Part shown: one piece after another, positions 1,977 through 38,475 of the stretch
Layout of the letters: every line of letters starts with the position of its first letter
How positions within the stretch are numbered: the first letter of the stretch is position 1
NCBI GenBank assembly: GCA_001858525.1
Contig: LAPX01000001.1
Location: 70,307 to 134,306 of the forward strand
DNA length: 64,000 nt
Direction of reading: 5' to 3'
Source: Vampirovibrio chlorellavorus
GTDB taxonomy: Bacteria; Cyanobacteriota; Vampirovibrionia; Vampirovibrionales; Vampirovibrionaceae
Notes under the pieces: model-generated
What the model was told of the DNA's origin: nothing
The model's database searches: none
Seen by the model: only the letters and a program-made list of their open reading frames with translations
Translations under genes and position numbers: made by a program

Positions 1977-4688
1977 TCAGGCAGCCTGGAACTGTGGCGT
2001 TTCTAAGGTTGTCCAGCCTTGATTACTCCACTGGTAGACCTTGCCAGTCACGGGATCAAACACGGTCAGGTTGATCCATTGATTTTCAACCAGATTTCGC
2101 ACGGCTTGACTGGTTTTGATAATTTCCTGAACCCGTTCCAAGGGTGCTTCAATGCAAACCATCAAACGCTGGGGATAATGATAGGGCGCTCCATCGTTGT
2201 CAAAGAGGGACTCATAGGGCAAGCCCAATTGCAAATCACTACCATTACCAATGTAGGTGCCAAACAGACCTACCACATTGTGCACGTATTTTTTGCCACT
2301 GCCAAAGCGACTCTGATTCAAGGTTGAAAAGCCGTATTGCAAATTAATCCAGGCTCCCACCACCATGGGCGCGTTCATAATGGTGGTCAAAATACTGGCA
2401 TCCGAATCGACTTGCCAGTCATAAGAATGCAAGAAGCAACGTCCCTCCAGATCCAGGGATTTAATTGATTCACGGTTACAAATAATAAAGGCCTGATTTT
2501 TGGACAAACCCCATTCCGGACGGGTTTGAGACCAGTCAAAACTCAACTCCTGAGCCTTCTGAGAGTTGGACTGAAACCCAGGTGTGCTGAACCGTTTTTG
2601 CCGGTTCAGACTATTCAGCTGTGTGGCTTGTTCAAACACTTTTTTCAGGGCCAGAAAATGTTGTTGCTGTTGATTCGGAATCACATCCTCATTCAGAAAA
2701 ACAACATCATCCGTGGTCGTATTATGTTCAGCGGCGATAAAGCGGGTATGCTCCGGAATGGCCCAGCCCGCAAGTATGAGGGCCTCCCGAACATCGGGAT
2801 GATTCAGAATTTGGCACAGTACCAGTGCGTTGTAGCCACCGCCATTGGCACCGCAAGCCCCACAATCCAGAGCAGAGGCGTAGGGGTTATTGCGGCTTCG
2901 GGCGTTATGCCCACAGATAATCACAAACTCGGCAAAAGGTTGACGAAATCCCAGCAGCTTCAGAATACCCTTGGCCATTTCCACTTGCTCAGGGATGGCC
3001 ATACCCAGGGTTGAATGAGAATGATTGCAGGTCTGCACATCCAATTTGGGCATCAGTCCCAACAGGGGGCTCAGGGTATTCACCACGGATTGTCTGACCT
3101 TGCCAACCGGTGAAGCCCAGAACGTATCCTTCAACAGGGTTACGGCATGAAACAACCCAAAACTTTCCACGTAAGAAAAAGTGGCAAAGGTGTCTCGTTT
3201 TATTTTTTTCAGAGCGTAAATCCACTGATTCCGCAAGGGAATCCCCTGACGCAACAACTTGCCGATGGGGTTATTTTCCAGGAACGGCGAAGGCGATTCG
3301 GGAATGGTGTACTGAGGCTCTAGCAGAATAGGACAGAGCGGTACGGCCTCGTTGCTGGCATAACTGATTTTTCCGATAGGAAGCCCAAAGAAGCCGGCAA
3401 AGCCATAGGTTTGAATGTTGCCGCAACTTTCCAGAAATTTGCGATACGGCTCAGAACGAACATCAATGCAAAAGACCGCCTGAGCATCGGGATGCATCTG
3501 TACAGGCTTTGCAGCCTGTTTGGGTTGCTGAAGTTGTTGCGTCAAGTTGACCAACAACGAACGGTTTTGAGCACATTCCAAAGCCCGCATCATCAGGGTC
3601 AGGACTTGAAATTCATCCACAATGTCGAAGTAGCGCAGTAACTCTGGAACATGATTCAACAAAATCGACTCACGTTGCGAATGAGCAGCCGACTGGAAGA
3701 AAGCCGCCTGACTGAGAGTGCGCATTCTGGCGCCATATTGCTGTACCAGATCGGAGTCCGCAGTCATCGGTTCCTTGGAAGCGGAGCGGGGCCAATTACT
3801 TTCCACACAAGCAAAGTGATAAATGAAACAAATCAGCAAATAATCGTTCAGCAGATCCTGATGCCTGGGGTTCTGGGTCTGCCGGTACTGAATGTAACCC
3901 ACCCAGCCTGGCATTTGTTTTAGATGAAATTGAATCAAACGGTCCTGATCCTCAACGGATAAATCCGCTTCCAGGCAGAGCTTTTCCAGACTGCCAATGG
4001 CAGAGGCCGGTGCTTCCGCATCCAGAATCAAACCCTTGACCATCGCGCGCATGGCTTTTTTCGTGGCACCCGGCATGCTGTCATCATGCAGCATTAACTT
4101 GGCCCAACTGGCTCGCAAGGGCAACTCCTGATTGGGCATGGCCCAAATGGCTTGCCCCTCATCCAGATAAGCTGCCAGCCACTTGGTGACTTGCTCATGA
4201 ATCCAATGACTCGTCAGGGAAGGGAGCGGCTGATGGTCTTGCAACAAAGCAGGTGGTAAGGCCTCCCGAATGCGGGACTCCATTTGCGCTTGAGTAGTCT
4301 GAGATACTGCCAATTTAACCGCAGTGCCTTCAGACAGAATGATCGAGATTTCATCACGCAAGAGCTGTTTATAGCTGATGGACTGATTCACAAACCCAAT
4401 CTTGTTATCCAGACCCAATTCAGACTGGGCCTCATCCAAGACCCGATCAATATCAGCCAGGGAGAAGGCTTTCTTTTGAAATAATCGGCGTATGACATCC
4501 TGAGCTTCACTCACTGAGAAGCCCAAATCCAGAGAGGCCTCTTTCAAGGCTTGGGCAAAAGGCAAATGTTCAAAAGTCACCAAAGGATTACAGGCATTAA
4601 ATGTTTGCAGTGGCCAAAGTTTACCGTACTTTGACGCATGATGCTGAATGGTAGCCATCAACGATTCGGATGCTTGGGAGTGACTCAT
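1977..4688 (-). CDS. dabA: DabA-type subunit (DUF2309) of a DAB energy-coupled inorganic-carbon uptake complex.
   Basis: 903 aa. Beta-CA-like metal-site motifs FCIDVRSE (C-x-D-x-R) and [24 protein letters not shown] (H...C). Lies immediately downstream of a NuoL/MrpA-like membrane subunit on the same strand. Confidence 0.75.
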   Translation of the reverse strand: [903 protein letters not shown]

Positions 4689-4723
4689 GGGAATTGCTCC
4701 TTTAAGAAGTCAAAAAACTGGCT

Positions 4724-6268
4724 CTAGAAACGGGCTGAAAAAGTGCTCTGCTGTGGGTTTACACCCGCGGCGTTCAAGAAAAAGACATAACACTTTTCTT
4801 TAAGAGACGTTGGTATCGGTAACAGGTTTAAGGTAGCCAACCAGGCTAGGAAACCGGCTATCAGAAAAACCGCATTGGTTAGCGTCAGCAACATTGGCTG
4901 ATCGGAAATTTCTGCCTGATGGAAAGTCGGGAGCGCGCCCACAGCCAACCATTCATACAGTAAATAGGCCCCCACCAGTAACAAACTGAACAGAGTGGCA
5001 ATGGTCAAGCCTTTGATACCGTTGCCCTTGGTTTTAATAATGGTGGTTTGAATAAACAGCGAAGACAGCACCAGAACGCTCAACAACAGGGCAGGCAGTT
5101 GGGCCAGCAAATCTCTCAGACCTTCAATTTGCAGCAGTAGCAACCAGCTTGCCCCAACACTCGCCGCGATAATACCGGCAGTGCGCAAGCGCTGGGGGAC
5201 GGAGCTTTGGGCCTTCTCCGCCTGCTCGTTTTTCACATTGCGAATTGCTTGTCGGTACTCAATCACACTGCCCGCAGACAGAAACAGGCGCGCTTTAAAA
5301 AAGCCGTGAACCACCAAGTGAAAAATGGCCAAGTGAAAGGCGCCCAGTCCGCATTCCATCATCATAAAGCCCATTTGCCCAACGGTGGAAAACGTCAGGT
5401 AACGCTTTACATCCGATTGTACCAACATGGCGGAACTGCCATACAGTGCGGACACCAAACCCATGATCAAAATAAAGGCCATCACGGTTGGTTGGGAGCC
5501 CAACAGCGGCGCTATTTTGGCAAACAGAACGGCCCCGGCGTTCACAAATCCGGCATGCATAATGGCTGAAACCGGTGTGGGGGCTGTCAGGGTATGAACC
5601 AGCCATTTTTGGAATGGAATAATGGCAGTTTTGGAAAAAGCCCCGATGCTCACGAAAAGCAAAGAGAACAACACCGCCTGATTGTGCGGTTGGCCAGCCA
5701 ATGCGTTCCAGTCAGACAAAAACAAGCTATTACTGAGGGTAATGAGACCCGTTACCCCAATGACCAGAAATAAATCGCCGACTAAAAAACGATTCAAGGC
5801 CATGCGAGCTGAGTTAATGGCCGCCGGTGTTTTGGCATGTCCAATCAGAAAATACATCATAATGCCCGAAAACATCCAGGCCCCAACCGTAATCAGGGCG
5901 TGGTTACTCACCACAAAAAGAAGCAAGGAGGCAATTAACAACTTGATTTTCAGAAAAAACAAGGGGTAGTCTGCATCTGTTTGCAGGTAGTGATAAGCAA
6001 ACCGCTTCACCAGCAGCCCCATCAATAAAATGTAGGGCACCAGCAACGCTTGTAGCGGCCCATCCAGAAAATAACCGGTCGATGACCCAGGATACGTGGT
6101 GAAAGACTGAAAACTCCATAAAACGCCCAGAAACAGGGCAATCCAGGCAGACGTTTCACTCCACTGGCGCACTTCGGTACAGGCCCCTCTGGACTTCAGG
6201 AGGTATAAAGCCAGGGCACTGATTCCGTACAGGGCAACAATAGCGACCAATAACAGGTTCAAAACCAT
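4724..6268 (-). CDS. dabB: DabB-type proton-conducting membrane transporter, NuoL/MrpA/NdhF family.
   Basis: 514-aa polytopic membrane protein with NuoL-like helices (e.g. MHAGFVNAGAVLFAKIAPLLG, SVIEYRQAIR). Paired with the DUF2309 gene 35 nt downstream. Confidence 0.75.
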   Translation of the reverse strand: MVLNLLLVAIVALYGISALALYLLKSRGACTEVRQWSETSAWIALFLGVLWSFQSFTTYPGSSTGYFLDGPLQALLVPYILLMGLLVKRFAYHYLQTDADYPLFFLKIKLLIASLLLFVVSNHALITVGAWMFSGIMMYFLIGHAKTPAAINSARMALNRFLVGDLFLVIGVTGLITLSNSLFLSDWNALAGQPHNQAVLFSLLFVSIGAFSKTAIIPFQKWLVHTLTAPTPVSAIMHAGFVNAGAVLFAKIAPLLGSQPTVMAFILIMGLVSALYGSSAMLVQSDVKRYLTFSTVGQMGFMMMECGLGAFHLAIFHLVVHGFFKARLFLSAGSVIEYRQAIRNVKNEQAEKAQSSVPQRLRTAGIIAASVGASWLLLLQIEGLRDLLAQLPALLLSVLVLSSLFIQTTIIKTKGNGIKGLTIATLFSLLLVGAYLLYEWLAVGALPTFHQAEISDQPMLLTLTNAVFLIAGFLAWLATLNLLPIPTSLKEKCYVFFLNAAGVNPQQSTFSARF

Positions 6269-8697: not shown

Positions 8698-9906
8698 TTA
8701 AGCCTTTAAGACAGGGCGCTGCCCAGCCTCTTCAATCAGGCCCCGCAATTCGGATTCGGTCCACACGGGCACTGGCGGCTTGTTCCTTAAAAATTGAGCA
8801 TAGGATAAATCATCGGTGTTTCCGGCGTGACTGGCCCCCCACTCAAAGGCCTGCTGGGCCATCTCCAAGCGTTCCGGAACCCAGCTGAATTGAATCTGCG
8901 GGATTTGCTGACCCAACAGTAAACGTGCCACCGAAACCAGTTTCAAGGCTTCCGATTCGGAGATCAGTCCCGCTTGCGGCCCGGCAATGGGTTGATGGGA
9001 GGGATGAGGCCACAGTTGAATGATCAATCGTTGAAAGGCACCGGGGTGAGCCTCCTGAAATTCACGCAGCAAGGCCAAATGGGCCACTCGCTGCTCCCGG
9101 CTTTCCAAAGGGCCAGCTTCCAACCGGGCCAGGGTGGGCATGCCCCGCTGATGGGCCAAGGCCACGATCTCCAGCCACCGTTTTACAGTCAGCTTTTTGG
9201 GTGCAATGCGAGCCCGATGAGCATCCTCTAGAATTTCTGTGCCGAAACTTTCCAGAACCCGCACCCCATGATCCTTTAGGCAGTCCAGTATGTAGGCCTC
9301 GCTACGGTTGCTCACCACGGCCAAAAAGGCAATCTCATCGGGCGAAAAACCCTGAATCCGGCAGGAGGCAACCTGATCCTGAATGTGATTTAGCACCCGC
9401 AAATAGGTTTTCAGCACCGTGGCAGCCTCTAATCCGGGAATAACCAACTCCGAGTCAAAGCCGCCGCCACTCACGGTCAGCCATTGGGATTGCTGGGTTT
9501 TGACCGCTTGCAAAATGGCATCAATATCATCAATGGACACACGATAAGCCTGGGGATTGCCCTGATTTGCAGGGTAAGGATAAAGCGCCGGGGCCATCTC
9601 GCACACATTGGTGAGGAACAAAGAGTGTCCCGTGCCGTAGGCAATGTCGCCACCTGCCTGTTGCGCTTTCAGGGCCTCAGCCACCGAGCGCAACCGGGCA
9701 CAATCGGGCGGTGCTTGTAGAGCCAGTAAGGGCACCGCTTGTGAAGGGGTCAGGGGCTGCCCATCTTCAACGGCATCCAGCACAGCCGAGGCATTCCCCT
9801 GAACTGAGCGGGCAGTGACTGTTCGATTGCTTAAGGCTTGAGAAAACATACTGCTATTGTAGAAGAAACAGAAAACAGAAACAGTTTTCCGGCACGGGGG
9901 CGGCAA
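8698..9906 (-). CDS. MqnC/MqnE (aminofutalosine / cyclic-DHFL synthase) family homolog that lacks the canonical radical-SAM CxxxCxxC cluster motif. The probable start is the internal MFSQALS.
   Basis: Family-typical blocks are present: GDIAYGTGHSLFLTNVC, TVSGGGF, LESFGTEILEDAHRARIAPKKLTVKRWLEIVALAHQRGMPTLARLEAG...RVAHLALLREFQEAHPGAFQRLI. Where CxxxCxFCAF is expected, the sequence is TNVCEMAPALYPY (checked on the DNA). Confidence 0.6.
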   Translation of the reverse strand: MPPPCRKTVSVFCFFYNSSMFSQALSNRTVTARSVQGNASAVLDAVEDGQPLTPSQAVPLLALQAPPDCARLRSVAEALKAQQAGGDIAYGTGHSLFLTNVCEMAPALYPYPANQGNPQAYRVSIDDIDAILQAVKTQQSQWLTVSGGGFDSELVIPGLEAATVLKTYLRVLNHIQDQVASCRIQGFSPDEIAFLAVVSNRSEAYILDCLKDHGVRVLESFGTEILEDAHRARIAPKKLTVKRWLEIVALAHQRGMPTLARLEAGPLESREQRVAHLALLREFQEAHPGAFQRLIIQLWPHPSHQPIAGPQAGLISESEALKLVSVARLLLGQQIPQIQFSWVPERLEMAQQAFEWGASHAGNTDDLSYAQFLRNKPPVPVWTESELRGLIEEAGQRPVLKA

Positions 9907-10005: not shown

Positions 10006-11103
10006 TTAGGCAATCCAGGCCGGGATGCCATTGGGCTCCGCCAGTTGATTGATGGTCAGGCCATTCACAGTGGTGCTGAGAATATTGCCCAGATCAGCTG
10101 TGGGGGCCTCAGGTTCTGCCAATAAGTTCATCAGGTCCGATTGGGCCTGAATGGGGACAATCAGGTTTCCAGCAGCCAGACCAAAGGGCTGCCCGGCCCA
10201 AACACCCGGAATAATACCGATGGCCGATGCTGGTGGCTGAGTGACCCGGGCTTGACTCAGCAAGAATTCCAACTGGGGAAGCGCTTGCTGGGCCGCGGTC
10301 AATTGAGTGGTTTTTTCAGTAATCTGGGCTTGCAATTCGGCGGCTCGGGCTTGTACACGGGCCTTATCTTCCTTGCCCGTCTGATCGGTCTTAAGCACTT
10401 TGGCCCGAAGATCTTGCAGATCCGTAATGTCTTTTTGCAATGTACTGATTTGAGCTTTCAACTGTAGAATGGCCAAGCCAATTTGAGTGACATTGTTGGT
10501 GTTGGGAGCGACCGGTTGACCCACAGGCTGAAATAAGGGGGAGCCACTGAGGAACGTATTGGGAAACAGTTGAGCCTGAGAAGCAACGGGGGTGACAAAA
10601 TTCTGGAAGGGGGGCACCACAGGGGTTACAAAAGGGTACAGGGGTGGCACCAGATTGGGCTGAAATAAGCCATTTCCGCCAAAAATCTTATTGGTGGAAT
10701 CCATGGTTCCCAGCAAAACGTTCAGGGAGTTCGGATTTCTCCAAATCAGGGGGTTAAAAGCTGTCAAATCCTTGTTCAGACTGGCTGAAGGGGTGAAGAT
10801 GTTGCTGCCAAAACCGGGGGATAAAATATTACCGATGAGTCCGGTGGTCCCGTTTAAAACACTGACCGGATTGGCATTTTTGGGAATGGGATTGTTTCCC
10901 AGCAACAAAAACGGAGAGTTGCTGCCGCCGGAGGAAATACTGCCGGAAAAATCATTGACTGAACCCAAAATATCGCGAGGGTGTAAAAAGTCATTGCCCC
11001 GACCATCGAAAACACTACCGGACAATACGCCAGCATTGACAGTGGTACCGGCAAAAGCACGCTGGTTGGTCAACGGGGTAAAAGAACTAGACAGAGTCGA
11101 CAT
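10006..11103 (-). CDS. Hypothetical protein. The N-terminal half is G/N/S/P-rich and low-complexity; there is a central coiled coil.
   Basis: Long ORF. The coiled-coil segment is LQLKAQISTLQKDITDLQDLRAKVL...AELQAQITEKTTQLTAAQQ. Confidence 0.55.
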   Translation of the reverse strand: MSTLSSSFTPLTNQRAFAGTTVNAGVLSGSVFDGRGNDFLHPRDILGSVNDFSGSISSGGSNSPFLLLGNNPIPKNANPVSVLNGTTGLIGNILSPGFGSNIFTPSASLNKDLTAFNPLIWRNPNSLNVLLGTMDSTNKIFGGNGLFQPNLVPPLYPFVTPVVPPFQNFVTPVASQAQLFPNTFLSGSPLFQPVGQPVAPNTNNVTQIGLAILQLKAQISTLQKDITDLQDLRAKVLKTDQTGKEDKARVQARAAELQAQITEKTTQLTAAQQALPQLEFLLSQARVTQPPASAIGIIPGVWAGQPFGLAAGNLIVPIQAQSDLMNLLAEPEAPTADLGNILSTTVNGLTINQLAEPNGIPAWIA

Positions 11104-11389
11104 AATGCGGTATCCCTTCTGATGATGAGAAACTCACTAACCTTGAATGACTTCGGCGGTGGGTGGTTTGGGAATGGATGAGATGGCTTGAAAAATCTGG
11201 AGGGTAAAAAAGATGAGGATGATATCTAAAACTTATCCCTTATGATGGAATAAAAAATCATTAGTATATAAAATTGATCCCAAACCCCAGTTTAGTTACA
11301 AAAGTTCATAAAATGCCCGAAGAAAAGCCAAAACAACCCGTCCCAAAGTTCCTTCTGGAAACGTGACTCTGAGAACTCGATTGAAGAGC

Positions 11390-12246: not shown

Positions 12247-13401
12247 TTAGGGCGTTTTAGAGGATGAAGCAGAGTTATCATAACTGAAAGGATGACGGAT
12301 CCGTTCTTTCAAGGATGTTTTTTGATCCGGTTGGGGTGGTGGTGGCACCGGAAATGGCAACCAGCCATTGGCCCCCACAGCAGGGGCGGTATCATTCAGG
12401 GAAACCATTTGGGTCCGCTCACTGGAAACATCGTAGCGCCACACGCCCAAAAACTTCTTTTCTTTCAAATCGTAGGCCCAGGCCTTAATCAACACCACGT
12501 CATCGCTATTGGGTTCCCACCCCAGCGGTTGAATGTCCCAGTTCAGCTTTTCAATGTGTGCTAAATTGCCATGCTGAATCCAGTAATGCTGAATAACCCG
12601 CTGCACTTCCGGGTAAATGGTCACGGTGCCCTTGGCCTGATCATGGATGAGAATATTGGTGGTGCGCACCCCCAGGTGCAAAATGCCACTGCGCTCCTTG
12701 AACAGCAGACGATTGCCGGTGTAAGACCAATCCACCACGGTTAGGGTTCTAAAATCAAAGCGACCCACCCGGTTAAAACCCACATCGGCCAGGGATTTTC
12801 GAATGCGGGTGGTCTTTCGGGGATCAAAACGAGCGGCATAGGTAGCAAAGGCCACCGGGGGATCAGGCTTGGCTTGGGCCGCCTCACTGGGCAGTCGTTC
12901 CAGCGGCGGCTGAGGGAGCGGCGTGACCGGGACCCAGTACAATCTGGAAATGGTCTGGCGATCGTCTGGGGTAAACAGCACCTCTGTGTAGACAAAGGCG
13001 GTTTTGTCCGGGGCAACCACCGGGGGACTCTGAATCAGGCGTCGCCCTTCCAGATTCCACAGATCCAACTCTCGAGGATAGGTATTATAAGGTTCATAGC
13101 GGACATAGTCCGGGATATTGGACGGGCTATCCACGGACAGAGAAGCGTTATTGGCTGGCATCCCATAAACGGGCCGCGTTTCCGGGGCCATGGGCGGCGC
13201 AGGGGTGACCTGAATGGGGATAGCCGGTTTTTTGGCGGCCTCTACCCAGCCCAAAGCCAGGACGAAAAGGGCCATTAGCCCACACACGCTCAAGCGCCAA
13301 AACCGCTGCAACATCGGGATACGCATAGCGTTATTGTGGCACGGCGGTAAGATGTCGCCGTCCTCAATCCAAAGGAACTTCTGGCTAAAAGGATGAAGCA
13401 A
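12247..13401 (-). CDS. Hypothetical exported or membrane-anchored Pro-rich protein. The start is probably an internal Met (MRIPMLQRFWRLSV...).
   Basis: N-terminal hydrophobic segment LSVCGLMALFVLALGWVEA. No recognisable catalytic motifs. Confidence 0.55.
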   Translation of the reverse strand: MLHPFSQKFLWIEDGDILPPCHNNAMRIPMLQRFWRLSVCGLMALFVLALGWVEAAKKPAIPIQVTPAPPMAPETRPVYGMPANNASLSVDSPSNIPDYVRYEPYNTYPRELDLWNLEGRRLIQSPPVVAPDKTAFVYTEVLFTPDDRQTISRLYWVPVTPLPQPPLERLPSEAAQAKPDPPVAFATYAARFDPRKTTRIRKSLADVGFNRVGRFDFRTLTVVDWSYTGNRLLFKERSGILHLGVRTTNILIHDQAKGTVTIYPEVQRVIQHYWIQHGNLAHIEKLNWDIQPLGWEPNSDDVVLIKAWAYDLKEKKFLGVWRYDVSSERTQMVSLNDTAPAVGANGWLPFPVPPPPQPDQKTSLKERIRHPFSYDNSASSSKTP

Positions 13402-13419
13402 CTGATGAGAAAACAGAAG

Positions 13420-13523
13420 AAAAAAAAAGACCTCTTTTTACAGAGAGGTCGATCCATTTTTTTGGTTGGGAGTGAGGGGGAAAGTGAGTGTTTTTGTAGG
13501 GATGTTAGTGTGTTACTAACTTT
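13420..13523 (-). ncRNA. Candidate small RNA, unit 1 of a tandem paralogous pair. It ends in a canonical intrinsic terminator.
   Basis: On the minus strand: -35 TTGCCA, 16-nt spacer, -10 TATATT (plus 13531..13558). Then a conserved C-rich 3' block (CACTTTCCCCCTCACTCCCAACC), a 7-bp hairpin (13429-35 / 13444-50) and a T9 run. Confidence 0.35.
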
Positions 13524-13530
13524 AGATAGC

Positions 13531-13558
13531 AATATACCGCTTCAAAAATTGCTGGCAA
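13531..13558 (-). promoter_or_regulatory. Putative sigma70-type promoter for sRNA unit 1.
   Basis: TTGCCA, 16 nt, TATATT on the minus strand. The region is partly conserved upstream of unit 2 (13921..13946). Confidence 0.3.
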
Positions 13559-13762
13559 GAAAATCCGTAGCTCAACCGTCATGTTGTAATATTTCGTTAC
13601 ATTCACCATTAAAAAGACTATAGAAGCAATACAACCTAACCACCCTCGGGTGAAGCAGGCCTTTGGCTCTGTACATTCTCTGGCGGGCTTTACCTATAGA
13701 CGCTCAGGAGGCCAGAAACCGTTTGAAAACAGAAAAGTCAGAGCCGCAGTGTATGAGTAAGC

Positions 13763-13913
13763 AAAAAAAAGACCTTCTAACGAATTAGAAGGTCGATCCA
13801 ATTTTTAGGTTGGGAGTGAGGGGGAAAGTGAAAGATTTAAGAGTTAGATCTAACTCCCAAACAACAGACTTTGCTTTGCTATAAGGCTTAAAGCGCCGCC
13901 GTGTTTGAGTGTT
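13763..13913 (-). ncRNA. Candidate small RNA, unit 2 of the tandem pair.
   Basis: Same conserved 3' block (plus 13791..13830). 10-bp hairpin GACCTTCTAA-CGAA-TTAGAAGGTC (13771..13794) followed by T8. The stem differs from unit 1 by compensatory changes. The upstream region is similar (ATAT(A/C)CGCTTCAAA). Confidence 0.35.
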
Positions 13914-14355
13914 TAAGTAGAATATCGCTTCAAATTTCGGGCGCAACTGTTTTCGTACAATTTCGCCCCACGTGTTTACAATTATTTACATAGAGTGTTC
14001 AAATCACACTAAAACCGTGGCTTTTTGATTTCAGCCCAATCATCACTGACCGTCCTTTAAAATCAGGGCCATTTTGACAGCAGACTAATTGACAGTTGCC
14101 CCAAAATTTCTCCCGTAGCAAATGCACACCATGACTGGTAAGTGTGGCCCAAACACGGGATTCTCACTGTTACATTTGCTTACATGGCGACCCTGCTTGG
14201 TGTTTCCAAGACACGGACTTTGGCAAATCACCACACCGACTGAGAATCCTCCATCATGAATTCCCCCGGTGGAGCAAAGAAAATGAAAGTAAAAGTCGAA
14301 CCAGGCCCTTGGGGTGCGATAGAATAAGGCATCGAGCAAGAGATCAGCGAACCCC

Positions 14356-15567
14356 ATGGATTTTTCTGGAAAAACAATTGTCGTAGCCATTACCGGAGGC
14401 ATTGCCGCCTACAAAGCCTGCGACCTCATACGGGAACTCTACCGGCGAGGTGCCCACCGGGTGCTGGGTATTATGACCCCGACCGCAGAAGCCTTTCTCC
14501 CCTCACTGACGGTACAGGCCTTGAGCCGCTACCCAGTGTACACGTCCGAATTGTCCGTGGATGATCATGGGGTGCCCATTCACATCGTGCTGGCCCAGCA
14601 GGCCGACGCCTTGCTGATTGTCCCTGCCACCACCGACACCCTGGCCAAGCTGGCCCATGGTCTGGCCGATAATCTGGTGACCACCACGGCCATTACCTTT
14701 ACCGGCAAGCCGGTTCTGATAGCCCCGGCCATGAACACCCGCATGTGGGATCATCCCATCAGCCAACAAAATCTGGAAACCCTTAAAAGCGTTCCCAATT
14801 ACCAAGTGATCGAACCGGCCTCCGGCAGTCTGGCCTGCGGGGAAGTGGGCGAGGGCCATTTGGCTGACCAAGAGACCATACTACAAGCTCTATACGCCGC
14901 TCTGCATCCCCAGCGAGATTTGTACAACGGCGTGAAGGTTGTGGTCACCGCCGGAGGCACTTCTGAGCCCATTGATCCGGTGCGGGTCATCTCCAATCGC
15001 AGCTCCGGCAAAATGGGGTTGGCCTTGGCCGATGAACTGGCCGCAATGGGGGCGGAGGTCATCCTGATTACCACCCGTCCGCCCAGTGGCAGGCGTTATC
15101 CGATCATGACCGTGCAGACGGCCGCCGACATGAAAGAGGCCGTGGAGGCTCAAGCGGCACAAAGCCAATTGGTACTCATGGCTGCGGCCATATCCGATTA
15201 CCGGGTGGACAACCCTTCGGCCCAAAAACTGAAGCGCACGGCCAGCGAGTCCCGGCAACTGGACTTGGTACCCAACCCGGATATTTTAGCCGGTCTGGGG
15301 GCCAATAAACCTGCTGGACAAATTCTGGTGGGGTTTGCCGCCGAATCACAGGCACTCATTCATCACGCCACCCAAAAGCTACAGGCCAAAAACCTGGATG
15401 CCATTGTGGCCAATGACATCAGCCGCAGTGATATTGGCTTTGAGGCCGATCACAACGAAGTGACCGTCCTGTTTCCCCATCGGGCGCCTGAAATGCTAAC
15501 CCGCAGCAGTAAGCCTGAAATCGCCAGGCAGTTGTTACTGTTATTACACCAGCAGTTTTTTGCATAA
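14356..15567 (+). CDS. coaBC: Bifunctional phosphopantothenoylcysteine decarboxylase / phosphopantothenate-cysteine ligase.
   Basis: Flavoprotein N-terminal domain (KTIVVAITGGIAAYKACDLIRELYRRG) and a DFP C-terminal ligase domain. 403 aa. Confidence 0.9.
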   Translation: MDFSGKTIVVAITGGIAAYKACDLIRELYRRGAHRVLGIMTPTAEAFLPSLTVQALSRYPVYTSELSVDDHGVPIHIVLAQQADALLIVPATTDTLAKLAHGLADNLVTTTAITFTGKPVLIAPAMNTRMWDHPISQQNLETLKSVPNYQVIEPASGSLACGEVGEGHLADQETILQALYAALHPQRDLYNGVKVVVTAGGTSEPIDPVRVISNRSSGKMGLALADELAAMGAEVILITTRPPSGRRYPIMTVQTAADMKEAVEAQAAQSQLVLMAAAISDYRVDNPSAQKLKRTASESRQLDLVPNPDILAGLGANKPAGQILVGFAAESQALIHHATQKLQAKNLDAIVANDISRSDIGFEADHNEVTVLFPHRAPEMLTRSSKPEIARQLLLLLHQQFFA

Positions 15568-17404: not shown

Positions 17405-18292
17405 TTAGACAGAGCCAGCCAGTTCCGGCAGCACATCAATGAATTCAGGCTCAATTTTGTCCTGAATCACCCCGATGGCTTGTCCCCGCCATAACAGCAG
17501 CTTCACAGCCTTGCGGATTTCCACATCAGCGTCCAGGGTCATCTCGTTCACGTACATGCCCACAAAGGCGTCAGCGGTCTTTTTATCCAGGCCACGGGCG
17601 AACTGCAAGGCATAATCCAGGGCTTCTTCCCGATGTTTCAAGCCATGCTCAATGCTGCGCTTTAACACCCGTCCAATTTTCTGAATCATTTCCGGCCCTA
17701 AATCCCGACGGATGGCGTTGCCGCCCAGGGGCAGGGTCAGGTTGCACTCTTCAAACCACCATTCGCCCAGATCCACAATCTTCACAAAGCCCTGTTGCTG
17801 ATAGGTCAGCTGGCCTTCGTGAATGATCAAACCGGCTGCAAACTCACCGCTTTCCACCCGTTCCATAATCTGATCAAAAGGCACCACAGCGGTTTTCAGT
17901 TCCGGCTCCCAAATTTTAAGGGCCAGGTAAGCCGTGGTCATTTCACCAGGGATGGCCACCGTAATTTGCTTCAATTCATCACGGGTCATTGGTTTTTTGG
18001 CAATCAGAACCGGGCCGTACTTGTCCCCGACACTGGAACCCACATTGAGTATGGCGTATTTGTCATGCAAATGGGCATAGGCGTGATAAGAAATGGCGGT
18101 CAACTCGTAGGTGCCATTCAAGGCTTCCCGGTTCAGGGTTTCAATATCGGTCAAGATGTGCTCGAAGGTCAGGCCTTCGGCATCGATTTTGTGATGGGCC
18201 AGAGCCCAGAACATAAAAGCATCGTCGGAGTCCGGGCTGTGGGCCACTCGAATGACAGCCGGGGCGGGTTTGATTTCGCTCATAATTAGCAC
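17405..18292 (-). CDS. mqnD: 1,4-dihydroxy-6-naphthoate synthase (MqnD, futalosine menaquinone pathway).
   Basis: The N-terminal segment SPDSDDAFMFWALAHHKIDAEGLTFEHILTDIETLN resembles the MqnD consensus SPCPNDTFMF.AL. About 290 aa. Confidence 0.7.
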   Translation of the reverse strand: MLIMSEIKPAPAVIRVAHSPDSDDAFMFWALAHHKIDAEGLTFEHILTDIETLNREALNGTYELTAISYHAYAHLHDKYAILNVGSSVGDKYGPVLIAKKPMTRDELKQITVAIPGEMTTAYLALKIWEPELKTAVVPFDQIMERVESGEFAAGLIIHEGQLTYQQQGFVKIVDLGEWWFEECNLTLPLGGNAIRRDLGPEMIQKIGRVLKRSIEHGLKHREEALDYALQFARGLDKKTADAFVGMYVNEMTLDADVEIRKAVKLLLWRGQAIGVIQDKIEPEFIDVLPELAGSV

Positions 18293-30758: not shown

Positions 30759-31727
30759 TTAGACCAATATTTTTTGCCAGTTTTGTTCAGCTTTTTCAAA
30801 CAAAAAACCCACCAGGGCATCGTTGGTCTGCTCCATCACCGAAACGGCCCTTACGGGCGTGGGCTCTGCGGAAATCAAATCAGCAGCCTGCAGCGGGGTC
30901 AGGGGACCCAGCGGAAAGGCCCTCAAAAACAACTCACTGGAAAGCCCGAACACCCCCTGCCCCAAACAAGCTTCCTCCAGAGGATGGCCCATGGACGTCA
31001 GCGCCTGGGCAATCAAAGCTTCTATCGGGTTTTTCGACCCAACGTAAGCGGCCAAGATTTGTAACAGGGCCGGTCGCATCAGTAAGCCCGGCAGGGACTC
31101 CTTCACCCAGAAATCCCCTTCATCCACCAGCCATTGACTGGTTTTGAAAATCATTTTTTTGAATTTAAAGACATTTTCTGAATCGGACAAGCAGTGGTTA
31201 TACACAATCCGATCACAAGGAATTTCATCCATGGTCAGGGCGTTGCCTTGCACGAAACGAATATTGCCACGGCGTCCCACCGTGCCTTGGGCTTTTTCAA
31301 TTTTGCGGGCATCGGTATCTATGCCCACGATTTCCACCTCAGGCATCAACAGGGCCATCAAATTGGTAAAGGTGCCATCGCCACAACCAATTTCCACAAT
31401 ACGTCTCAAGCCAGGGCCGGATGACTGTAGAAATTGAGCAGGCACCAATGCCCCATTAAACCATTGCTGTGGTACCCAGTTTGAAAAATGCAGCCGGTCA
31501 TAAAGTTTTCCGGCCAACTGAGCCGCCAGCCGCTGGATATCCGACCATTGCTCCAGGCTTGTTCTGGATGATGCCATCTCTTGTTCAGGCATTGCCGGCT
31601 TGGACCCATTACTTTCAGCCATGACTTGCCGGATACTAATCGCCATACACACTCCCAAACACTGATCCAACTTGTGCACCGTATTGGGGAAATCATAACA
31701 ATTGCGGCCCGTGCAAGGCTCCCCCAA
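30759..31727 (-). CDS. Class I SAM-dependent methyltransferase. The start is probably an internal Met.
   Basis: Motif I VEIGCGDGTFT. Confidence 0.7.
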   Translation of the reverse strand: MGEPCTGRNCYDFPNTVHKLDQCLGVCMAISIRQVMAESNGSKPAMPEQEMASSRTSLEQWSDIQRLAAQLAGKLYDRLHFSNWVPQQWFNGALVPAQFLQSSGPGLRRIVEIGCGDGTFTNLMALLMPEVEIVGIDTDARKIEKAQGTVGRRGNIRFVQGNALTMDEIPCDRIVYNHCLSDSENVFKFKKMIFKTSQWLVDEGDFWVKESLPGLLMRPALLQILAAYVGSKNPIEALIAQALTSMGHPLEEACLGQGVFGLSSELFLRAFPLGPLTPLQAADLISAEPTPVRAVSVMEQTNDALVGFLFEKAEQNWQKILV

Positions 31728-37227: not shown

Positions 37228-38475
37228 ATGTTCAAAATCTTCTCGGTTGAATCGATAGATAACCAACACCCCGGCCTGTGCGAAATCTACCGGCAATTAC
37301 AGGGTCAAGGCTTCCAACTGGTCTCCCCAAGGGAGGGAAAACCGCTGCTTGCGGAAATCAAGGCGGAACAGCCAGACCTGATTCTGGTGGACCCCACCCT
37401 CTCCGAGCAAAAAGGGGCTCAGGTCTGCCAAGGCCTCAAAAACGACCCAGAGACCGAAAACATTCCCATTATTTTTATCCACAGCCAGCTCAGACCCAAC
37501 CCCAAAATGCTGGCCAGTCTGGAAAGTGGGGTCAGCGACCTGATTTCCATTGAAACGGAAGAAGTGGAAATCCTGGCCCGCTTGAAGTCGGCCATTCGCA
37601 ACAAGCGGCTGGTCAACCAGTCCGTGCAACTGGCCGCACAGCTTAACAAAATGAATACCGAGCTGTATGAACGCAACTTGCAAGTTGAAAAAGAGTTGTA
37701 CGTGGCCCGTCAGTTGCAACAAAGCCTGCTTCCTCCGTTTTTAGCCGATTCTACCCTGCCTGCTGAAGATGTCTCCGCCTTTAGCAAGTGCCACTATAAA
37801 AACGACAAACTGAAAATTTCCGGCGTTTACCTGCCTTGTGACGCCCTGGGCGGGGATATTTACGATGTTATCCAGTTTCCCAGCGGCACGGTGGGGGTAG
37901 CCATCGCCGATGTGTCTGGGCATGGCGTACCAGCGGGCTTTATTACCGCCATTTTCAAGTCTTCCTTTTACCGAATCACCCACAATCACGATTGCCCCGC
38001 CGATATTCTGTATCACCTCAATAACGAGCTGGCCGATATCATCAAAACCGGGGAGTATGTCACCGGCATCTACGGGCGCATTTTCCAGCCGGACGATCAG
38101 CCAGACAAGCAGGTCTTTGAGTTTTCCGGCGCGGGGCATCCCTATCCGCTATACTACAAGGCTTCTGAACACAAGCTATACCGCCTGAAAGAAAACGGCA
38201 CCCCACTGGTGTGGATTAAGAACATGGAATATCCGCTGGGCCGGGTAGACTTGGAGCCGGGCGACAAGATATTTATGTTCACCGATGGGGTCAGCGAAAT
38301 GCGGAACATCCATGAGGCCATGTACTCCGAAGAGCAACTGGAGCAAACCTTTATGGCACTCATCGAACAGAAGTCGCCCCGGATGCTGGATGAGATCATT
38401 CAGCAACTCTCGGATTTCACCGAAGGCCACCCCTTGGAAGACGATGTCAGCGTGGTCCTGATCGAGGCACTGTAA
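37228..38475 (+). CDS. Response-regulator receiver domain fused to a PP2C/SpoIIE-type Ser/Thr phosphatase (RsbU-like).
   Basis: Receiver domain with LILVD acceptor Asp. C-terminal SpoIIE motifs GGDIYDVI, ADVSGHGVPAG, FTDGVSE. Confidence 0.85.
   Translation: MFKIFSVESIDNQHPGLCEIYRQLQGQGFQLVSPREGKPLLAEIKAEQPDLILVDPTLSEQKGAQVCQGLKNDPETENIPIIFIHSQLRPNPKMLASLESGVSDLISIETEEVEILARLKSAIRNKRLVNQSVQLAAQLNKMNTELYERNLQVEKELYVARQLQQSLLPPFLADSTLPAEDVSAFSKCHYKNDKLKISGVYLPCDALGGDIYDVIQFPSGTVGVAIADVSGHGVPAGFITAIFKSSFYRITHNHDCPADILYHLNNELADIIKTGEYVTGIYGRIFQPDDQPDKQVFEFSGAGHPYPLYYKASEHKLYRLKENGTPLVWIKNMEYPLGRVDLEPGDKIFMFTDGVSEMRNIHEAMYSEEQLEQTFMALIEQKSPRMLDEIIQQLSDFTEGHPLEDDVSVVLIEAL

Follow-up and report, generated by a model that had tools for sequence, protein, structure and literature searches.

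What is encoded in the gene-free stretch that separates coaBC from an open reading frame (ORF) of 384 amino acids in Vampirovibrio chlorellavorus, and what are the two closely similar blocks that this stretch contains? We addressed this question in a 64-kb section of the genome, in the following referred to as the window, in which both blocks belong to units that read as small RNA (sRNA) genes on the minus strand. The Vampirovibrionales are non-photosynthetic and constitute a class-level sister group of the oxygenic cyanobacteria; Vampirovibrio itself is an obligate predator of Chlorella and is genetically hard to study. On the strength of sequence comparison, the sRNA reading of both units is strongly supported. 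Beyond this, we consider it probable that they are two paralogous, independently transcribed sibling sRNAs of a previously uncatalogued family of the Vampirovibrionales, which would be controlled by an RpaB-like regulator and would pair with their targets through a C-rich core.

Two sibling units on the minus strand

The two copies of the block, at 13446-13494 and 13790-13838, are 90% identical across 49 nt. They share a 24-nt core, GGTTGGGAGTGAGGGGGAAAGTGA, which occurs exactly twice per 64 kb (13464-13487 and 13808-13831) and finds no match in shuffled sequence even with up to three mismatches tolerated. An earlier inspection of the letters without database searches, here termed the sequence-only reading, had taken the blocks for a paralogous pair, each lying on the minus strand between a promoter and an intrinsic terminator. 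The paralogy and the positions of the blocks stand, whereas the right limit of 13960 that had been given for the pair does not: The units reach ~13992 through the promoter of the second unit and the repeat upstream of it.

Unit 1, of what we call the A-type, is a gene of ~104 nt (13421-13524, minus), counted from the predicted start to the end of the U-run; it scores 87.5 bits with a covariance model (CM) that was built on the 3' domain of the units. Its minimum free energy (MFE) fold (z = -3.1) comprises a 5' hairpin, a long unpaired region and a terminator. The 5' hairpin, GUUAGU-AACAC-ACUAAC (13504-13520, minus), begins ~5 nt past the predicted start. The C-rich core UCACUUUCCCCCUCACUCCCAACC (13464-13487, minus), which is the exact repeat and the proposed seed, is unpaired in both the MFE and the centroid fold. 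The intrinsic terminator (13420-13450, minus), identified by terminator scan and by covariation, consists of a stem-loop at 13429-13450, the stem of which (GACCTCT/AGAGGTC) pairs perfectly, and of a U9 tract at 13420-13428. Transcription would be driven by a promoter at 13531-13558 (minus) with the -35 box TTGCCA at 13553-13558, a 16-nt spacer, and the -10 box TATATT at 13531-13536. This promoter, already singled out by the sequence-only reading, was confirmed by a scan as the best sigma-70-like match in the region.

Unit 2, of the B-type, is organized in the same manner, spans ~150 nt (13763-13912, minus) and scores 87.3 bits with the CM (fold z = -3.5). Its core (13808-13831, minus) has the same sequence as that of unit 1, and in both units an A-rich linker connects the core to the terminator hairpin. 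The terminator of unit 2 (13763-13794, minus) has a stem-loop at 13771-13794 with the perfectly pairing arms GACCTTCTAA/TTAGAAGGTC, followed by U8 at 13763-13770; the scan thus calls both terminators that had been proposed from the letters. The promoter (13919-13946, minus) is the homologue of that of unit 1, with TTGCGC at 13941-13946, a 16-nt spacer and TATTCT at 13919-13924. Throughout, start sites were placed at the seventh base after the -10 box (±3 nt), and RNA lengths follow from this promoter consensus. Unit 2 additionally contains an internal hairpin around GUUAGAUCUAAC (13835-13862, minus), which is lengthened by UUUGGGAG in this genome only. As UUUGGGAG is complementary to ACUCCCAA, a part of the core, masking of the seed would be possible in unit 2; self-sequestration of this kind, by UUGGGAG pairing with the core, was rejected because the extension is kept neither in L015 nor in L030, two of the related loci described below.

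Members of the family, their structure and their surroundings

To which organisms does this arrangement extend? An exact 19-mer, TTCCCCCTCACTCCCAACC, was scanned in 185,579 genomes, one per species (596 Gb), and was found at 31 loci (L001-L031). The full anatomy is present at 26 of them, all in metagenome-assembled genomes (MAGs) labelled Vampirovibrionales, Vampirovibrio, Melainabacteria or Cyanobacteriota, two of which are V. chlorellavorus assemblies; here a hairpin with a U-run comes after the motif each time, and loci with two or three motifs spaced ~200-370 nt apart are frequent. The remaining five loci belong to unrelated phyla, have no terminator, and reach 18-30 bits with the family model. 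By arithmetic, ~4 matches of a 19-mer would arise by chance in 596 Gb, close to the count of these off-group loci. The CM retrieved 44 copies with 53-91 bits from the window and the 26 loci, three of them with one change in the 19-mer and exactly two of them in the window. A metagenome scan added 14 copies (58 in total), and no family members were found in the viral contigs scanned. The copies mostly form arrays of 2-4 tandem units, with a range of 1-4 per locus. The minus-strand succession of promoter, unpaired C-rich block and intrinsic terminator, first described for the two units alone, thus recurs in 44 genomic and 14 metagenomic copies. Judged by their sequences, the A-type and the B-type each form an orthologous lineage of their own; the two have the core in common and differ in their conserved 5'-side sequence.

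Some individual loci illustrate the variation in copy number: L001 (3110-3878) has four tandem units, two of which carry a 1-nt change in the C-run, L004 (7166-7851) has three with the exact motif, and L024 has two. In three MAGs, two copies are located on different contigs with different neighbours (L010/L022, L012/L021 and L014/L029). Two of the 26 loci, L006 and L008, bear the names of photosynthetic families (Coleofasciculaceae and Oculatellaceae), yet they carry an A/B pair by a coaBC that is 66-68% identical to that of the window, and in L006 the other neighbour genes of the window likewise have homologues. Probably these labels are wrong or the bins are mixed; were the labels true, the family would reach into the oxygenic cyanobacteria.

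If the units are RNAs, selection should be visible in their structure. Covariation was scored on the CM-based alignment; on a plain MAFFT alignment, in which the terminators are misaligned, RNAalifold gave three pairs. In the terminator helix, 95.8% of the cells are paired and double-sided changes occur in all seven pairs (80 cells), and these pairing values were reached by none of 500 shuffles. When the partner was slid by 1-3 columns, terminator pairing fell to 38-62%. The unaligned sequences exhibit distinct perfect stems directly, among them GACCUCU, GACCUUCUAA, GAGCUCCCA, GGCCGC and CCCUCUC. The compensatory changes that the sequence-only reading had noticed between two stems are therefore a property of the whole family. 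A second structured element is located at the other end of the RNA: In most copies, a 5' hairpin built on GUUAGUAA lies a few nucleotides past the predicted start and its partner arm varies to match, and a GUUAG-containing 5' hairpin is found in 34 distinct copies (mean z = -2.8). A CCAA/UUGG helix beside the core is likewise predicted; we do not claim it, as covariation is missing and some lineages have lost it.

At the level of sequence, the stretch CCUCACUCCCAAC is unchanged in 44/44 copies, the invariant unpaired core amounts to UUUCCCCCUCACUCCCAACC, and the C-rich core is unpaired in the MFE folds of nearly all copies. Twelve A-type orthologues are near-identical between ~+5 and the terminator stem and vary in the terminator loop only; ten B-type orthologues have an invariant 3' segment of 80 nt behind a variable 5' part. 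Among the same loci, the CoaBC proteins are merely 47-87% identical, and the spacer between the two units (13609-13712) is unalignable even with the closest relative.

These data bear on the question whether the block acts at the level of DNA, be it as a repetitive extragenic palindrome (REP) or miniature inverted-repeat transposable element (MITE), as a bidirectional terminator cassette, or as a gene for a small protein. The block is indeed repeated, its hairpin, with an A-run on one side and a T-run on the other, could act as a terminator in either direction (a weak terminator call exists on the plus strand), and a spurious 80-aa ORF overlaps unit 1. However, copies that number two in the window and 1-4 at each locus, always lie on the promoter strand at a syntenic site and are missing from viral contigs do not resemble a dispersed repeat, the alternative that the sequence-only reading had itself named; terminal inverted repeats and target-site duplications are lacking as well. 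Moreover, the sole AUG of unit 1 corresponds to UUG in its sibling, and the lengths of the terminator loops differ by non-multiples of three, which makes a peptide gene unlikely. A DNA-level element is, in our view, scarcely credible.

The surroundings of the cluster suggest a second alternative, namely cis-acting leaders or attenuators that govern read-through into the gene downstream. On the left, the stretch is flanked by the 384-aa ORF (12247-13401, minus), which has no Pfam match and looks secreted; unit 1 ends ~20-95 nt upstream of this ORF on the same strand, and in other lineages the last unit likewise precedes a same-strand gene. On the right lies coaBC (14356-15567, plus), from which the sRNA cluster is divergent in 15 loci. 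The identity of the downstream gene, however, varies by lineage: In the window it encodes a secreted-looking protein of unknown nature, seven loci have yggS-sepF in its place, and three have an ArsC/Spx-like gene. Such variety speaks against a function of the units as dedicated cis-leaders. In addition, unit 2 precedes another sRNA promoter and not a gene, anti-terminator pairing is not conserved, and the stretch that precedes the terminator has no predicted pairing. Leaders of this type are very improbable, and we continue with the reading of the units as independent sRNAs.

Promoters and the HLR1-like repeat

How would such sRNAs be controlled? Nearly every copy is preceded by a promoter composed of TTGCnn, a 16-nt spacer ending in TGAAGCG(A/G), and TAnnnT. 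Located ~45 nt upstream of the -35 box is a direct repeat, TGTAA(A/C)-N4-TGT(A/T)A(A/C), which, on the opposite strand, reads as the cyanobacterial HLR1 consensus. HLR1, (G/T)TTACA(T/A)(T/A)-N2-(G/T)TTACA(T/A)(T/A), is bound by the OmpR-type regulator RpaB (PMC6525291). Measured against the reversed consensus, the repeat of unit 1, AATGTAACGAAATATTAC (13586-13603, minus), matches at 14/16 positions and is centred at ~-70, and that of unit 2, TATGTAAATAATTGTAAA (13975-13992, minus), matches at 16/16, is centred at -71 and is identical in L015 and L030. Across the family, a repeat with a score of at least 14/16 is found at -70..-72 in 36 of the 55 distinct promoters and at -60..-62 in five more, giving 41/55 in total. 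The mean best HLR1 score is 14.05 versus 9.53 in shuffles (maximum 9.91); the TGTAA columns are conserved to 74-100% and the next 27 columns to 32-66%. In the entire window, five HLR1-like matches with at most two mismatches were counted versus 1.09 expected.

In Synechocystis, RpaB sites show an activating peak at -51 and a repressing one at -5 (PMC6525291). Compared with the activating position, the sites described here lie two or one helical turns further upstream, and this quantisation by one helical turn, as would result from an activator that depends on the face of the helix, together with the distance from the core promoter, suggests activation. According to the mechanism that we propose, an OmpR/PhoB-type response regulator would bind the 10-bp-spaced TGTAAm-N4-TGTAAm element ~71 nt upstream and thereby activate both genes. 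Because the repeat matches HLR1, a putative RpaB homologue, as reported for other Melainabacteria, would be the most likely regulator. Homologues of RpaB, RpaA and NblS are reported from Melainabacteria, where their role without photosynthesis is unknown (PMC3787301; PMC4040986; Di Rienzi et al. 2013; Soo et al. 2014); the HLR1-like site at a fixed position makes the puzzle of their retention experimentally approachable.

The closest precedent for this promoter layout is PsrR1 of Synechocystis, an sRNA whose promoter also carries an HLR1-type direct repeat (PMC6525291). In PsrR1, however, HLR1 overlaps the start and represses, whereas the repeat here is reversed and lies at -71 or -61, a position expected for activation. 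PsrR1 and the units share no sequence similarity, and the present host is non-photosynthetic. As a functional analogue we consider OmrA/OmrB of the enterobacteria, which are adjacent paralogous sRNAs under OmpR-family control with a common pairing domain and divergent remaining sequence. The pairing domain of OmrA/OmrB is situated at the 5' end, whereas the conserved core is found here in the 3' half, and sequences, regulator and taxon are unrelated.

Further HLR1-like repeats and one receiver-domain gene were observed elsewhere in the window. A third repeat near the cluster, GTTACATTTGCTTACATG (14/16; 14169-14186, plus), lies ~178 nt upstream of the coaBC ATG, on the coaBC side of the unit 2 promoter. 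L030 has the identical repeat, L015 has one that deviates only in the two final bases, and more distant loci lack it at this position. The repeat may belong to a leader promoter of coaBC (TTGGCA-16-GAGAAT, 14220-14247), or it may be the relic of a third unit. Another site, with two mismatches, is located at 11295-11312 upstream of a 365-aa gene without Pfam match (10006-11103, minus). It is oriented as at the sRNAs, and a TATACT box ~40 nt downstream would place it near -52, similar to the activating position in Synechocystis; this gene may be co-regulated as part of the same regulon. The sole receiver-domain gene detected in the window (37228-38475, plus) appears to be of the REC-PP2C type and is not of the OmpR type: A tblastn match corresponds to residues 22-122 of PhoB, and the C-terminal part looks, by eye, like a PP2C/SpoIIE-type phosphatase.

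The C-rich core, its possible targets and the wider window

Turning from control to function, we compared the units with known RNA families. In Rfam 15, the units have no match; searches at gathering and permissive thresholds yielded only chance-level hits such as DUF805 RNA, IhtA and STnc240. The sub-threshold DUF805 RNA match (13700-13768, plus; 23.9 bits versus a gathering score of 51.1, E = 0.09) precedes the terminator of unit 2 and consists mostly of spacer that can be aligned only with the closest relative, L015; we treat it as chance. The Yfr1 model (RF01116) gave no match at gathering score on the whole window and none at E <=10, neither on 1.1 kb nor on 121 nt of unit 1. In the full-text literature, we found no relevant paper that joins Vampirovibrio or Melainabacteria with sRNAs, and the core sequence returned an unrelated human primer as its only hit.

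The resemblance to Yfr1, the near-universal sRNA of oxygenic cyanobacteria, is one of layout. As in Yfr1, a stem-loop at the 5' end is followed by an unpaired, ultraconserved C-rich motif and by the GC-rich hairpin of a Rho-independent terminator with U-tail, the motif resembles an anti-Shine-Dalgarno sequence, and the host belongs to the same phylum-level group. Yfr1 is characterized by a perfectly conserved undecamer, ACUCCUCACAC, in its unpaired region (PMC2190773); the corresponding part of the core, CCCCCUCACUC, agrees with it at 8/11 positions in our own comparison, with CCUCAC shared. On the other hand, the undecamer as such is missing from 44/44 copies, and the units differ from Yfr1 in length (91-185 nt by predicted ends versus 54-69 nt), in the unpaired stretch (~50 nt in A-type units versus a 16-20-nt linker) and in genomic context: Whereas yfr1 is a single gene in the order guaB-yfr1-trxA in 25-27/31 genomes, the units stand in tandem arrays of 2-4 beside coaBC, and neither the window nor any of L001-L031 gave a tblastn hit for GuaB or TrxA. 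A further difference concerns expression, as yfr1 is reported to be constitutively expressed in Prochlorococcus (PMC6778093), whereas the promoter of the units, with its upstream repeat, looks regulated. On current evidence, the family would work like Yfr1 yet is not a member of it.

This comparison leaves room for descent. The units could be diverged Yfr1 orthologues, inherited from the ancestor that oxygenic cyanobacteria share with Vampirovibrionia and duplicated in this lineage; such a descent would be compatible with the sRNA reading. The shared architecture, the 8/11 agreement and a host lineage that is sister to the Yfr1-bearing members of the phylum speak for such an origin; the missing Rfam match, undecamer and synteny and the differing dimensions speak against it, and 8/11 identity in a C-rich motif may easily result from convergence on an anti-Shine-Dalgarno-like sequence. 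We hold Yfr1 ancestry to be possible, though doubtful. With similar reserve, we put forward the tentative idea that the sRNAs are the first identified output of NblS-RpaB in non-photosynthetic relatives of the cyanobacteria and share an ancestral C-rich sRNA with Yfr1. If this were true, an RpaB-controlled, anti-Shine-Dalgarno-like riboregulator would predate oxygenic photosynthesis, and the persistence of light-stress regulators in organisms without photosystems would be explained. The family is, in any case, usable as an outgroup for the origin of Yfr1-type C-rich sRNAs.

How might the core act? It holds two anti-Shine-Dalgarno-like blocks, CCCUC and CUCCC, and in our own comparison with the 3' tail of 16S rRNA, its UCACUCC resembles UCACCUCC. 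In the proposed mechanism, the RNAs would act in trans: The C-rich core would pair with G-rich sites of the GGGAG/GAGGGGG or GGGAGUGAGGG type that typically overlap ribosome-binding sites, which would block translation or change the stability of the mRNA. The anti-Shine-Dalgarno-like blocks in combination with the Yfr1-like layout lead us to favour translational repression at G-rich ribosome-binding sites. The differing 5' extensions of the A and B sisters would then result in overlapping yet distinct sets of targets. Pairing of unpaired C-rich motifs with G-rich ribosome-binding sites is familiar from RsaE/RoxS and other C-rich-motif sRNAs of the Firmicutes. There, each RNA has duplicate motifs, placed in loops or in the segments between hairpins, and both phylum and structure differ from the units described here.

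Several observations weigh against this reading of the units as regulated, base-pairing sRNAs. The CM-derived alignment was fitted to the helix, which somewhat inflates the pairing counts given above, and start sites as well as RNA lengths derive from the promoter consensus and not from transcripts. The HLR1-like site is located at ~-71 (or ~-61) and not at either of the two Synechocystis peaks, -51 or -5, and no OmpR-type regulator gene is present in the window or the loci. A duplex scan of the window identified no target: The best energy, -30.8 kcal/mol, is no better than those of ten shuffled seeds (-26.7 to -32.1). Likewise, core complements of at least 9 nt occur at chance frequency in the window and the flanking locus sequence. 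Finally, the invariant stretch of 15-19 nt could be a protein-binding site and not a pairing seed. Since the scan covered 64 kb and flanking sequence, the negative target search is weak.

The idea of a protein-binding site leads to a third alternative, according to which the RNAs are real and serve as protein-binding or decoy RNAs whose C-rich strand would be recognized by a KH-domain, Rho-like or other C-binding factor. A core that is invariant over 15-19 nt in 58 copies would suit such a function, complementary sites are not enriched, and the same alternative was raised for the Yfr1 motif by Voss et al. (PMC2190773). Against it stand the CCCUC and CUCCC blocks, the layout, as known from Yfr1 and other pairing sRNAs, and the restricted reach of the target search. 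We judge a decoy function unlikely and retain regulation by base pairing as the preferred reading. Terminator-ended trans-acting sRNAs with sister copies are a well-known kind; this family itself is apparently undescribed and could enter Rfam. Given an ultraconserved seed, 2-4 sister copies and conservation across the order, it is probably a central post-transcriptional regulator in the predator.

Among individual complementary sites, none recurs in orthologous position among the loci. The site at 4674 (plus), which looked best, was rejected as a target because it is antisense to a gene start and not a ribosome-binding site. The sequence UUGGGAGUG (31646-31670, minus) contains a 9-nt core complement 3 nt upstream of the in-frame ATG of an S-adenosylmethionine (SAM)-methyltransferase gene (30759-31646); this site, at 31658 (minus), is the only complement in the window that overlaps a ribosome-binding site, and it is too short to be told from an ordinary Shine-Dalgarno sequence.

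Three other features of the window concern its genomic background. The HIP1 palindrome GCGATCGC is not enriched (1 versus 0.63 expected), which fits a non-oxyphotobacterial genome. At 1977-6268 (minus), a pair of genes for DabA (PF10070, E = 3.6e-207) and a DabB-like protein (Proton_antipo_M) encodes a putative inorganic-carbon uptake (DAB) complex in the genome of this apparently non-photosynthetic predator. Two further genes were noted: A weak MqnC/CofH-like radical-SAM gene at 8698-9906 (minus) recurs in L006 only, and an MqnA-type gene (VitK2_biosynth) at 17405-18292 (minus) recurs near coaBC in nine loci.

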